The notes under the pieces were generated by a model. That model was not told the origin of the DNA. It saw only the letters and a program-made list of their open reading frames with translations, and ran no database searches. 64,000 nucleotides of DNA, from positions 2,211,908-2,275,907 of the forward strand of contig OZ241326.1 in the NCBI GenBank assembly GCA_965199855.1. The letters run 5' to 3'. The DNA comes from a bacterium (lineage in GTDB: Bacteria > UBA8248). Position numbers and translations under genes: made by a program. Below are positions 2,841 to 6,392 of this stretch, piece after piece; within the stretch, counting starts at the first letter, position 1; every line of letters starts with the position of its first letter.

Positions 2841-4133
2841 CTATCTTACCACTTTTTCCCGCCCGCCGAAAATCATGGACTCGACTTCTTTTTTCGCCTC
2901 TTCCAGTTCTCTTTTCGCTTCCTCTTGCAGCTCCTTCGCCCGGTCGCGCATCTCGGCAATGCGGTCGGCGATTTCAGTCTGTTTTTTCAGGGGAGGTTTG
3001 GGAATGCTTAGCCTTTTGAAAAGTTCATCGGCAACCCGTTGCTGACCTGCCGTGCCAGAAAAATATAGAGTGGCGTGGTTTCTAAGGGAGCGAAGCCGCA
3101 ACAAACCATAAACGTATCCGATGTTCATTTCTTGCTTCGCTCGAAAAACATGAAATTCCGTTGAACCAAAGCCTATGGCGTTTCTCAACCCCCTGACTAT
3201 CGCTGATTTTCCGTTCTGCATACATGGCGTTATTTTCGCCCAAATCAGATCATTGTCTTGAAACTTGGTATATCCTCCTGATTCTTCCAGCTTTCGAGCA
3301 ACTGAAATATCGGCCTCGCCAAACTGCTCGGATACCCTCTCCATTGGAATGAATGTCGCTAATGTATCAGGCGATAGATGCAAAAAGGAGGTGTAAGGGT
3401 TGATAAAAACACAATCCCCAAACCTGCTCATTGGATATTTGGTGGTTTCTAGGGTATATTTGTTTTGATGGAAAGGCGCATCGAACCTTCCACCCGAAAT
3501 ATCGCTGAAACGCCGTATAAACATTCGGTTTTGCAACGTGTTCTCTTCCGGCTCCGGCTGCTCGATTCCCAATTCACCCAAGAGATAATCATCAATACCA
3601 TCCAGCAATCGCTGCGCCTCCGCCTCCTTCTGTTTCTTGGCGGCGTAGGCGGCATCCATCTTCGCCGCGACCTGAGCTTGTATCTCTCTCGGAGGAATCG
3701 GGATTCTCAATGATTTATATTCTTCAGCGTTGATATTGGGCTGTAATGCTACGCGCTGAATGGCAGCAACCCAGTTTTTATAGGTCTCAAGCTGCGTATA
3801 TGCAAAAACGTAGTCGGGGCTTATCTTTTCTTCATTGACGACAAACCTGATCATATAGCCCGCGTAGAAACAGGGATGCTCTACCTCTTTCGTCTTGTGG
3901 ATATACGTCTTCCCGACTGTTCCGCTTCTAGCGAACAACAAATCGTTGTTCTTCAACAGGTATCTGCTTTCGACGTTTCGGGCTGTTTTTCCGAGTTCTC
4001 GTTTTAACATCCCATATTCGTCAATATCCGTAATTCGGATGTAGCGAGGTTCATCGGATGACCGTCTTTCTATCCCGGCCTCGTTCGCGCCGTATTGAGG
4101 TTTCAACTTCAGCAAACCAGCGAAACGCTCCAC
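2841..4133 (-). CDS. hsdS: Type I restriction-modification specificity subunit HsdS (two target-recognition domains).
   Basis: 430 aa. It has two variable TRDs separated by conserved central and C-terminal coiled-coil repeats (…[27 protein letters not shown]… / …[33 protein letters not shown]…). The region is markedly lower GC (~50%) than its surroundings. Confidence 0.85.
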
Positions 4134-4259
4134 TCGATATTTCGATTGGGTTGTTGTTCTTTGATACGCCGCTATAATCGGATCGAGCCGATCCTCCAGC
4201 TCGCTTCGGCTGACCAGAAACGCCTTGTTTTCATCGCAGGACCGGCGAAGATTGAAGCC

Positions 4260-6392
4260 TCATGTCCCTCCCGCCTCGACGGCTTCAATGAAGCGGGCGA
4301 GCTCCTCGCCGATGCCTTCCAGCTCGTTATTGTCTGTCGGTCTCCCCGCGGCGTCATAGCCGATATCCCCGGCTACCGCCATGAATACCGGAGAATCGCC
4401 CAATACGCTTCGCTTTCGCTCCGCATATTCCCGCTCCATGGTTTCCCGGAGCGCATCGATTTTTCCCCGGCATTCGGCGCCGACCCGCTTTTTCCATTCC
4501 CTATAGTCTTCGGACAGGCTCAACGCTTTGCCTTCCAGCCCTTCCGGATTGTCAAAGCCTCTGAGTTCCTTGATCCGCCGCTTCTTCTCCGCGTCAATCT
4601 CCCGCAACTGCTCCGGAAAATCATGCTCTTCCCTGATTTCGTCCCGTATCTCCGCTTTCCGGTTGCGGATCTCGGCGGTTGCTTCCGAAGTCCGCTTTTT
4701 CAGGAACAGCACCGAGGTTTTCACCCCCGCCCCTTTCGCCTGAAACGCGGTTTGGGGCATGGACGCCACCGCCACGAGGCGGAAATTCTCCTCCATGCCC
4801 TCCCGCGCGTATTGGAGGCTGGAGTTGGTCAGGATGCCGTCGGGTATGACGATCGCCAGATAGCCTCCCTCGGCGAGAAACCTGTGGCATTGCTCGATAA
4901 ACAGAATTTCGGAGCTCTGGCTGTCCCGGACTGTTTCCTTGCTCTTCGGGTTCAGCCAGTCGGCTTTCTTGAGCGCGTAATCGTAGTGGCGCATGTAGGC
5001 TTGCTCGGTTCGCTTGATCTGGGAGCCGAACGGCGGATTCGTGATGATGAAGTGGAAGCGTCCGTAAACGAATCCGTTGTTTCTCGTGAGAGAAAAAATA
5101 TCGTCAGCGGACATCAGCCCGTCGGCGGCGATCACGTTCGTATGGCCGTCATCGTGGAGAATCATGTTCATCTTGGCGGTTCTGGCGATTCGATCGTTGA
5201 TTTCGATGCCGAATATGTTTTTTTCCGCGAAGCTGCGCCAGTGCCTGTCATAGTCTCTTGATTCCGCCAGATCTGCTTCAAAATTCGGATAGTATTCACT
5301 CGCCTGCCGCCTGACCTTGTCAAGCGCGTGAAGCAGAAACCCGCCGCTGCCGCAGGAGGTATCCAGAACCAGCGAGTCATTGGTTATCGGCAGCGCGTCC
5401 ACGATGAACTTCACGATGGGGCGAGGGGTGAAGAACTGCCCGAACTCTCCACGAAAATAAGAACCCATGAAAGTTTCAAAGGCCTTGCCCCTGCTGTCCA
5501 GATCGGTTTTTCCAAAATCGACGCCTTCCAGATAGCCGACGACGGTGCGCAACTTTTCGCAGCCGAGGCGAATATCCTCCTGAAAGACTTCGGGGTCTTT
5601 TTGCCGCCCCTCGGCATACAGGGCGCGGACGCGCTTTTGCAGTCCCTTGTTCGTCTTGTCTTCCGTGCTTTCGGTGAACACCTGAAAATCGTAGGGTTCC
5701 CCCTTTCTCCTGGGCTTTTTCTCGTCCCACATTTTGCAGAAAATCAGCTTGTTCAACTCGTCGAAGGCTAGCGAGGGGTCGAGTTGCCCACCCCCCCAAA
5801 GCGCCTGATGCGCCTGTCTGAACCTTCTCGTCAGCGCGTCTTCCGTTATGGCTTCGAGCTCGAACAGCCTTTGTCCGTTGGCGGAACCCCCGCCCCGGGC
5901 GTATTTGAACCTGGCGAGCCGGCTGACGCCGTATTGCGGGATATCGGGAATGGGCAAGCGCTTCTTCGGCTCTTTTTCGGGAATCTCGAAGCAGGCGTCT
6001 TTTATTCGGGAGGTTACCCAGAAATACCTGGCCCGGACTGTTCCCGTGGCGGCGTAGCTGAAAGCCTGGGCGACGGCCTGCTCGAACTCGGCTTCGGAGA
6101 CGTCCTCCGCCTTGCACTCGACGACGATATGGGCGGATTCACGCTCATCGTCGTTATAGACGATAATATCCGCCTCTCTGGTGTCCGCGCCGATTTTTAC
6201 CGGAACGAACTGCTCTATGCGCTCCGGGGCGTAGCGATAAACCAGAACCAGTTTGAGGAACGTCTCCGCCTGGACGGACTCTTCCGGCCGCGCGTAATTT
6301 CGCCTCTTGCCCTGGCGAACGTAGGTGATGTATTTCCCGTCGTCATCAAACGCGATCAAGCCTTTGTCTATTCCTTCGCGCAACAGATCCAT
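4260..6392 (-). CDS. hsdM: Type I RM N6-adenine DNA methyltransferase HsdM, 710 aa, with an N-terminal HsdR_N-like PD-(D/E)xK domain and a C-terminal coiled-coil extension.
   Basis: N6_Mtase core with the ITNPPFG (motif IV, NPPF) and SAM-binding LDTSCGSGGFL (motif I). The first ~150 aa carry D…(D/E)xK (EADIIVYNDDERESAHIVVECK), resembling the HsdR N-terminal nuclease-like domain. No hsdR gene is adjacent. Confidence 0.85.
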   Translation of the reverse strand: MDLLREGIDKGLIAFDDDGKYITYVRQGKRRNYARPEESVQAETFLKLVLVYRYAPERIEQFVPVKIGADTREADIIVYNDDERESAHIVVECKAEDVSEAEFEQAVAQAFSYAATGTVRARYFWVTSRIKDACFEIPEKEPKKRLPIPDIPQYGVSRLARFKYARGGGSANGQRLFELEAITEDALTRRFRQAHQALWGGGQLDPSLAFDELNKLIFCKMWDEKKPRRKGEPYDFQVFTESTEDKTNKGLQKRVRALYAEGRQKDPEVFQEDIRLGCEKLRTVVGYLEGVDFGKTDLDSRGKAFETFMGSYFRGEFGQFFTPRPIVKFIVDALPITNDSLVLDTSCGSGGFLLHALDKVRRQASEYYPNFEADLAESRDYDRHWRSFAEKNIFGIEINDRIARTAKMNMILHDDGHTNVIAADGLMSADDIFSLTRNNGFVYGRFHFIITNPPFGSQIKRTEQAYMRHYDYALKKADWLNPKSKETVRDSQSSEILFIEQCHRFLAEGGYLAIVIPDGILTNSSLQYAREGMEENFRLVAVASMPQTAFQAKGAGVKTSVLFLKKRTSEATAEIRNRKAEIRDEIREEHDFPEQLREIDAEKKRRIKELRGFDNPEGLEGKALSLSEDYREWKKRVGAECRGKIDALRETMEREYAERKRSVLGDSPVFMAVAGDIGYDAAGRPTDNNELEGIGEELARFIEAVEAGGT

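Follow-up and report, generated by a model that had tools for sequence, protein, structure and literature searches.

A probable Type IIB-like restriction-modification pair in a UBA8248 bacterium whose specificity gene has lost its start codon

A 64,000-nucleotide stretch of contig OZ241326.1 (GenBank assembly GCA_965199855.1, positions 2,211,908 to 2,275,907 of the forward strand; hereafter the window, meaning that whole stretch), from a bacterium of the GTDB lineage UBA8248, carries on its reverse strand two adjacent genes, one encoding a fused nuclease-methyltransferase (RM, for restriction and modification) and one encoding an HsdS-like specificity subunit (S). This pair probably constitutes a self-contained, ATP-independent Type IIB-like RM+S restriction-modification system of the BcgI/BsaXI type, acquired horizontally and afterwards inherited vertically at the rsmA|icd site. 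We assign it to this known kind because the RM chain combines a nuclease domain, a connector, a gamma-class methyltransferase (MTase) and a helical C-terminal region, the S subunit contains two target recognition domains (TRDs), and no translocase accompanies them. The architecture is already known, and the locus is not a new helicase-less type.

A first-pass annotation of the DNA had described two reverse-strand open reading frames (ORFs), of 710 aa (4260..6392) and 430 aa (2841..4133), both of which are in the ORF list as described, and had proposed an HsdR_N-like nuclease domain at the N-terminus of the longer one. In agreement with that proposal, the Pfam profile HSDR_N_2 (PF13588) was found at aa residues 36-152 of RM (E-value 1.3e-13; 51.5 bits against a cutoff of 25), N6_Mtase was found at residues 299-576 (E-value 7.8e-34), and the PADLOC profile PDLC03030 (MTase_I) covered the full length of the protein (E-value 1.9e-178), far above the score of the PADLOC mad2 model. 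The motifs quoted at first pass are real: EADIIVY holds D75, IVVECK holds E92-x-K94, and NPPF corresponds to residues 452-455. Structure comparison revealed that the fold of the N-terminal domain resembles those of HsdR, Type IIG and Type IIB nucleases. The proposed coiled-coil tail is really a helical insertion (residues 567-664) followed by beta-strands and a C-terminal helix.

Integrity of the catalytic residues had been named beforehand as a possible refutation of the nuclease domain, and the residues are kept on alignment. Among 98 divergent representatives (33-64% identity), D75 and E92 are conserved in 98/98, K94 in 92/98 and E37/E38 in 92-93; the catalytic residues are also near-invariant in 121 close homologs, where the QxxxY motif is kept. 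Within the clade formed by the window locus and its relatives L006, L007 and L008 (related loci are referred to by L numbers), the ratio of nonsynonymous to synonymous differences (pN/pS) was 0.12-0.26 for the nuclease domain and approximately 0.2 for RM as a whole.

The class of the system was indicated by comparison with characterised enzymes. RM.BsaXI was the best sequence match in the PDB (E-value 1e-37, against about 1e-14 for HsdM subunits) and also the best whole-chain Foldseek match, with an E-value of 1.6e-26 over 866 columns covering essentially the full chain, whereas HsdM subunits reached about 1e-12 across only about 410-430 columns. The pair therefore shows a nuclease and a gamma-class N6-adenine MTase on one chain, a two-TRD HsdS-like subunit and homology to a characterised Type IIB enzyme. 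The HsdM equivalog TIGR00497 scored 53.1 bits against a cutoff of 242.75. The single-chain RM organisation of Type IIG/IIL enzymes (MmeI, BpuSI, DrdV) was not found, since S occupies a separate frame with two TRDs; MmeI_Mtase scored 23.9 against a cutoff of 27, and BpuSI and DrdV are structurally weaker matches than BsaXI. Searches with the RM protein recovered 7414 cluster representatives at E-values of 1e-3 or below, and 697 at 1e-30 or below, from many phyla. The first-pass idea of a helicase-less restriction-modification variant is thus supported in substance, but the layout is the established Type IIB-like RM+S one rather than a new variant.

The best NCBIfam matches of the two proteins were MAD2 (288.8 bits, cutoff 720) and MAD5 (70.5 bits, cutoff 400), and the PADLOC mad2 and mad5 models match as well, as would be the case if the genes were MAD2-like and MAD5-like parts of a multi-gene methylation-associated defence system (MADS). 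Both NCBIfam scores, however, lie far under the equivalog cutoffs, PDLC03030 scores far above mad2, and further mad genes are absent: the neighbours are rsmA and icd/mdh, both in the window and in three relatives. Membership of MADS is therefore highly improbable.

The distribution of HsdR genes bears on a second alternative, that of a classical Type I system in which the M/S pair works with an HsdR encoded elsewhere and the N-terminal domain of M is accessory. As stated at first pass, no HsdR or helicase gene adjoins the pair, and Mfd is the sole helicase among the large ORFs of the window. In a survey of 76 related loci with 10-kb flanks, based on a helicase-motif filter that may miss atypical or split HsdR genes, HsdR occurred within 10 kb at one locus (L010), and in the homolog loci whose neighbouring genes carried Pfam annotation, RM then S formed the conserved core, with HsdR adjacent in none. 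L010 carries a true HsdR (1-3129, reverse strand; HSDR_N, SWI2_SNF2, ResIII and T1R_D3) about 7 kb away on the opposite strand, where it adjoins a fragmented RM copy (a 400-aa ORF). This HsdR probably belongs to a distinct Type I system lodged in a defence island. With a widened helicase-motif filter, L002 was found to carry a ResIII protein. The L010 gene, the database names, the PADLOC label 'Type I M', the typical two-TRD HsdS architecture of S and the 64-kb extent of the genome view all speak for a Type I system. Against it stand the rarity and placement of HsdR, the low HsdM score, a whole-chain structure far closer to BsaXI than to HsdM, and the fact that an intact, selected nuclease on M would duplicate that of HsdR. 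Moreover, a homologous two-gene system from Anabaena restricts on its own in Nostoc. We therefore consider the option of a Type I system with R elsewhere, raised at first pass, to be unlikely.

Several points nonetheless weigh against the Type IIB-like assignment. The class of the window RM and of its relatives of at least 64% identity rests on sequence and predicted structure, and the AlphaFold2 (AF2) model is of low confidence in loops of the MTase core. The family is labelled 'Type I methyltransferase' by PADLOC and in most database names, and an hsdR could lie beyond the 64 kb of genome searched.

By analogy with BcgI and BsaXI, two RM chains and one S would assemble as (RM)2S, whose two TRDs would read a bipartite target; on host DNA, one adenine would be flipped out and methylated by each RM. 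Unmethylated incoming DNA would be cut by the N-terminal nucleases at fixed distances outside the site, with Mg2+ and S-adenosylmethionine and without ATP. We infer the cleavage geometry, stoichiometry and cofactors of the window system from these enzymes. The locus adds a member to a very large family that is mostly mis-named ('Type I M', 'N-6 DNA methylase'), and thousands of pairs filed as 'orphan Type I M+S' probably make up complete restriction systems. Recognising them as such would alter the counts of defence repertoires and gene-transfer barriers in environmental and sponge-associated bacteria.

The first-pass annotation had noted that hsdS lies next to the RM gene, which is true, but the 430-aa GTG-started ORF that it reported is not the true gene, and the disruption of the S start escaped it. 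The S ORF gave Methylase_S matches in two stretches (Pfam), and its PDB matches were 1yf2, EcoKI S and S.BsaXI. The homologous S frame extends 43 codons upstream of the 430-aa ORF, up to the RM stop and without a canonical start, and the GTG-started ORF is thus an artefact of ORF calling. In the intact homolog L005, S opens at an ATG that overlaps the RM stop (ATGA) and reads 'MSFQLSPALNKNKIFLVKRSELEERLDP...'. Three-frame translation and alignment paired the remnant start of the window with L005 'MSFQLSPALNKNK...', whereas the window continuation 'DENKAFLVSRSELEDRLDP...', also homologous to L005 S, shares its frame with the 430-aa ORF and with RM. Nucleotide alignment located one extra base at about C4236 in the window relative to L005. 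Because of this 1-nt insertion, the ancestral ATG (4263-4261) is out of frame and leads into a mini-ORF stopping at TGA 4233-4231, and the RM gene and the body of S are separated by a single in-frame TGA (4262-4260).

The same junction is present in L006, L007 and L008, which come from three further independent assemblies; the frameshift is therefore real and ancestral to the clade. An assembly error was considered and excluded, since four assemblies, independent of each other and differing in sample and method, have the identical junction. Use of TGA as a sense codon was likewise excluded, as TGA terminates lepB, rsmA, tal, carB and mfd at normal positions. Gene callers give S as 389, 424 or 430 aa (L001 10712-11881, L006 7910-9184 and L007 3846-5138, respectively); since there is no canonical start and near-identical genes are called at three lengths, public S annotations in the clade are arbitrary at their 5' end. 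A second ATGA overlap joins the mini-ORF TGA (4233-4231) with ATG 4234-4232, which opens a third-frame ORF (4172-4234, reverse strand) of 20 codons, MKTRRFWSAEASWRIGSIRL, in the window and of about 41 codons in L006 and L007. This ORF has no S homology and is probably incidental.

To evaluate whether S is still maintained, substitution patterns were compared within the clade. The body of S gave a pN/pS of 0.12-0.26. Across the 34 startless codons between the shift site and GTG 4133, pS was 0.54-0.57 against a pN of 0.13 in the comparison with L007, the deep branch, and control frames across the same region showed no comparable excess of pS. The pS of RM between subclades reaches about 0.29, and neither gene has acquired stops or further indels in any of the four lineages. 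In addition, the TRDs have been exchanged while the junction was kept: the window and L006 carry the same pair, L007 has another TRD2 and L008 another TRD1; the breakpoints fall within the conserved N-terminal segment and within the central or C-terminal conserved regions. Taken together, these substitution patterns show that S and RM are still under purifying selection despite the lost S start. Exchange of TRDs at a fixed site in four close lineages also provides a natural series linking TRD sequence to methylation motif. The invariance of a 29-nt block at the junction (P of about 0.1 under single-frame coding alone) is suggestive only.

The same data bear on the possibility that the 1-nt insertion inactivated S and that the pair is a decaying remnant heading to loss. 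An ancestral frameshift 10 codons into S, the lack of a canonical in-frame start upstream of GTG 4133 and the inconsistent lengths assigned to S would fit such decay. So would the comparison between the window and L006, in which pN in the startless region (0.13) exceeds pS (0.07), which is compatible with relaxed constraint. The clade tests use four sequences, because a search of the metagenome collection returned no further clade members (best match 57% identity). Retention of both genes free of stops and further indels in four lineages, the pN/pS values of RM and of the S body, the excess of pS over pN in the startless codons on the deep branch and the exchange of both TRDs stand against it. 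A decaying pseudogene pair is thus unlikely for the clade, although the window lineage alone may be decaying; as an account of the locus, we rate decay as improbable.

A further alternative, which the first-pass annotation had listed as a phase-variable epigenetic system, is a methylation-only M+S pair with a non-catalytic nuclease-like domain, in which the disruption of the S start would serve as a switch, either ON/OFF or of dosage. PD-(D/E)xK folds are sometimes non-catalytic, the pair has no separate cognate nuclease, and with its start disrupted S is probably made at low levels. On the other hand, the invariance of D75 and E92, the retention of K94, E37/E38 and QxxxY and the low pN/pS of the domain argue for a selected nuclease. 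Neither simple-sequence repeats nor a shufflon that could operate a switch were found, and the search for features of phase-variable restriction-modification systems returned no tandem repeats in the genes, no hsdS-type inverted repeats, no second S copy and no recombinase. Furthermore, all four diverged lineages are fixed for one and the same shifted frame, which shows that the S junction is not switching. Phase variation in the classical sense is thus not supported. A methylation-only role is accordingly given little weight.

Since S is under purifying selection and exchanges its TRDs in the absence of a canonical start, its expression must be non-canonical. The route that we prefer, while giving it somewhat less than an even chance, is readthrough of the UGA to give an RM-S fusion. 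UGA is the leakiest stop codon, the stop is retained even though one substitution would fuse the genes, and a fusion working with free RM fits the behaviour of an EcoKI M-S construct; for these reasons readthrough is favoured. The readthrough junction '...AGGT-X-GFNLRRSCDENK' equals that of natural fusions '...SGKDSFFLGLDVDKNK' in length and in F-x-L...D-x-N-K spacing, and the natural RM-S fusions, of about 1190 aa, are collinear with the readthrough product. A low-level RM-S product would pair with free RM and reach the (RM)2S composition. Several considerations tell against this route: bacterial UGA readthrough is usually well under 1-2% and may be too little, no known readthrough stimulator or slippery site was found at the window junction, and the search for conserved RNA structure at the junctions of the clade gave a weak fold with one covarying pair, which supports no route.

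It is possible but less probable that translation of S begins at a downstream codon or a near-cognate one, for example CUG 4217-4215; three clade members have CTG there, L008 has TTG, and 2/4 show a weak AAGG upstream. If translation of the ATG mini-ORF shifted +1 at CGA-UGA, the exact homologous S length would be restored, but the P-site tRNA is unable to re-pair there, and we regard this route as rather doubtful. That S is not expressed at all seems to us the least probable of these outcomes.

UGA readthrough would functionally replace a signal found at the same junction in most relatives. In distant relatives (33-57% RM identity), the RM frame ends in '...PFFV' and a stop, while the S N-terminus continues in the -1 frame with the conserved pattern 'FFRLSPAE...CFAVxRGE...RLDP', and homology changes frame exactly at an in-register X_XXY_YYZ heptamer. 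Such a cassette, defined by a heptamer within the last 12 RM codons and a -1 ORF of at least 250 codons, was detected in 70 of about 120 non-redundant, assessable related loci. The heptamer is T_TTT_TTC three codons before the stop in 58 loci and seven codons before it in 6, and T_TTT_TTT (3), C_CCT_TTT (2) or A_AAT_TTT (1) in the remainder; about 13 further loci have the heptamer with a truncated -1 ORF. All four heptamer types fall in the H_HH.U_UU.Y class, whose members are among the most efficient in E. coli (PMC4066793, PMC5009743). In 50/70 cassette loci, the -1 frame contains no ATG, GTG or TTG upstream of the RM stop.

Downstream of the heptamer, a 6-nt spacer containing the RM stop is followed by an uninterrupted helix of at least 6 bp in 71/83 loci, compared with 6/83 shuffled sequences. 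The helix (GCCCCG.../...CGGGGC) encloses further pairing, individual folds range from -25 to -45 kcal/mol, and RNAalifold on 31 gap-free aligned sequences recovered an outer helix of 7 bp, three positions of which show compensatory changes. The RM proteins of these loci carry the same HSDR_N_2 and N6_Mtase domains, and the carriers span about 12 phyla, including the cultured Nostoc sp. C117, which has a complete genome (L022, junction at about 11870-11960). Further examples are L016-L018, L026, L095 and L096; L021 and L094; and L019. Rfam contains no family matching the stem-loop or the window region, and blastn found no cassette in annotated plasmids; of two plasmid homologs, that on pAQ6 of PCC 7002 is a single-chain fusion and that from Klebsiella an ordinary two-gene pair. 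Among Poribacteria, L109 reads 'GGATTTTTTCGGGTAAGCCC' (T6, with S in the -1 frame), whereas L039 and L041 read 'GATTTTTTTCGGGTAAGCCCC' (T7), giving an in-frame fusion of about 1069 aa that retains the stem-loop. The difference could be an evolutionary switch of form, a homopolymer sequencing error or low-rate phase variation.

Judged from its sequence anatomy, this junction bears the classic signature of -1 programmed ribosomal frameshifting, by which a single mRNA would yield RM and RM-S; possible alternatives are slippage of transcription on the T-run and downstream reinitiation. In the window clade, heptamer and -1 overlap are both absent (S being in the 0 frame behind the UGA), and no convincing structure was found. 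We tentatively suggest that recoding sets the ratio of free to S-bearing RM across the family, by -1 frameshifting at U_UUU_UUC in most members and by a leaky UGA in the window clade, with (RM)2S consisting of RM plus RM-S, an idea to which we give appreciably less weight than to its rejection. No description of recoding at an RM/S junction was found in open-access full text, Rfam or the GeneTack survey, and the portion covered of the Atkins 2016 review mentions none in restriction-modification systems. If the suggestion is true, restriction-modification systems would gain their first described case of recoding, and many 'hsdS' genes in the family would be mis-annotated with arbitrary starts. 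Were the cassette to drive frameshifting and the UGA to be read through, restriction-modification systems would join the few bacterial genes that fix subunit stoichiometry by recoding.

Regarding genomic context, the pair occupies a low-GC island between icd (icd/mdh) and rsmA, with GC fractions of 0.44-0.51 in S, the lowest of the island, and 0.53-0.61 in RM, compared with 0.66-0.70 in the flanks. L006, L007 and L008 carry RM+S at the identical rsmA|icd site, and their RM proteins are 87-91% identical to that of the window. No other M- or S-like ORFs are present in the window. A perfect 15-nt direct repeat, GCCCGCCATGACGCG, flanks the island at 2497-2511 and 6736-6750 (spacing 4239 nt), one copy lying within icd and the other across the rsmA start codon; it is probably due to chance in a GC-rich genome, and the search around the island returned no att sites or other flanking repeats. 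A short tandem repeat, AATGAAATGAA x 2.3, is found at 2779-2803, in the AT-richer stretch that separates the S stop from the icd start. A second low-GC patch at 60-62 kb holds only a phosphoribosyltransferase and unannotated small ORFs and is unrelated to the RM+S system. Promoter and terminator scans gave counts equal to the shuffled expectation and were uninformative.

In some related loci, other genes are lodged between RM and S, namely an unrelated 493-aa ORF with no Pfam match in L002 (12171-13652; Candidatus Haliotispira) and a Bro-N domain gene in L004 and L009 (12169-13023; Candidatus Spongiihabitans), reminiscent of the accessory or abortive-infection genes found within Type I operons. 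The Nostoc RM gene is preceded, at a distance of about 3 kb, by a CRISPR array (Rfam CRISPR-DR15, four repeats; L022 6760-7012), which suggests a defence-island context for that copy.

Table 1. Positions in the window of the features of the RM and S genes (CR, conserved region).
Feature	Position	Strand	Description and basis
RM gene	4260..6392	-	710-aa fused nuclease-methyltransferase; stop TGA 4262-4260; ORF, Pfam, PADLOC, BsaXI match
PD-(D/E)xK nuclease domain, aa 1-140	5973..6392	-	N-terminal
Putative catalytic residues	E37/E38 6284-6279; D75 6170-6168; E92-C-K94 6119-6111; Q109-xxx-Y113 6068-6054	-	
Multi-helical connector, aa 184-314	5451..5843	-	AF2 helices; aligns to BsaXI connector residues 196-348
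Gamma-class N6-adenine MTase core, aa 315-566	4695..5450	-	Pfam N6_Mtase
MTase motif I VLDTSCGSGGFL; motif IV NPPF	5369-5334; 5039-5028	-	Residues invariant in 60 homologs
Helical insertion ('knob'-like), aa 567-664, then last MTase strands and C-terminal helix, aa 665-710	4263..4694	-	AF2
S frame	2841..4259	-	472 codons, in frame with RM straight after its TGA; stop TAG 2843-2841
S parts	TRD1 ~4259-3696; CR1 ~3695-3561; TRD2 ~3560-2997; CR2 ~2996-2844	-	Methylase_S, clade alignment
S start candidates	GTG 4133-4131; CTG 4217-4215	-	GTG, first in-frame canonical; CTG, near-cognate
Remnant S start	4231..4263	-	ATG 4263-4261 overlaps RM stop (ATGA); 10-codon mini-ORF MRLQSSPVLR; stop TGA 4233-4231
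Invariant 29-nt block ATCTTCGCCGGTCCTGCGATGAAAACAAG	4224..4252	-	Identical in all four clade members

Among known systems, the window pair most resembles BsaXI of Geobacillus (PDB 8w0p/8w2p/8w2q; PMC11997821, PMC9159934), which likewise has RM followed by S and no ATPase, an RM chain organised as nuclease, connector, gamma-class MTase and helical insertion, and an S subunit organised as TRD1-CR1-TRD2-CR2. The catalytic pattern E...D-x(14-16)-ExK is common to both RM proteins, which share about 21-23% identity in structural alignment, their N-terminal domains aligning by fold and not by sequence. BsaXI RM is, however, longer (916 aa against 710) and ends in a long C-terminal 'paddle' needed for cleavage, which the window RM lacks, and S of BsaXI has an ordinary start of its own, unlike that of the window. 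The end of the window RM rather resembles the shorter RM+S Type IIB enzymes with a single helical tail. Type IIB RM+S enzymes comprise an R domain, a multi-helical connector, an MTase, a C-terminal helical tail and an HsdS-like subunit, assembled as (RM)2S without a translocase (PMC11997821); by published description, BcgI and the other RM+S Type IIB enzymes (A2B) have the same layout as the window pair and presumably the same (RM)2S composition. In the BcgI-type group, the RM C-terminal helix packs on the conserved helices of S (PMC11997821), and by analogy with these tails and with the BsaXI knob we would expect the same of the window RM.

Among relatives with experimental support whose N-domain belongs to the same family, the nearest is HsdRM of Anabaena (Trichormus) variabilis plasmid D, which has HSDR_N_2 and N6_Mtase on one chain and a separate HsdS. 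It aligns to residues 10-586 of the window RM with 30% identity (E-value 1e-55), including ADxIVY...IVECK...Q..SY. Plasmid D HsdRM and HsdS alone reduce conjugation and restrict when moved into Nostoc, and the few exconjugants were double recombinants, which the authors attributed to linearised incoming DNA (bioRxiv 10.1101/2025.10.21.683720). This protein differs from the window RM in being of BsaXI size (917 aa) and plasmid-borne, and its S gene, which shares 1 nt with the RM gene, starts normally. The preprint places PD...(D/E)XK at residues 444-452, within the methyltransferase region, whereas Pfam and alignment place the nuclease domain of this protein (L170, NC_021575.1, 60-2813) at residues 91-200 (HSDR_N_2, E-value 8.6e-24; AADVIVY...IIVECK...QLKSY).

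The -1 frameshift cassettes of dnaX and IS3/IS911 (PMC4066793, PMC5009743) consist of a heptamer, a spacer and a stem-loop, as in the 70 related loci, and in both cases the 0-frame and -1-frame products have a common N-terminal part; the window clade, in contrast, has an in-frame UGA in place of heptamer and stem-loop. With the Type I enzymes EcoKI and EcoR124I, the window pair has in common the S architecture, the MTase fold and the M2S core, in which the M C-terminus lies near the S N-terminus, and the ancestral state of the window clade was an ATGA stop/start overlap as in Type I hsdM/hsdS. It differs from Type I systems in the absence of the HsdR motor, in the position of the nuclease on M and in an HsdM score below the cutoff. 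An engineered in-frame EcoKI M-S fusion is active and requires additional free M (PMC3510504), a construct that hinted at the stoichiometry logic proposed here, of which no natural example is known.

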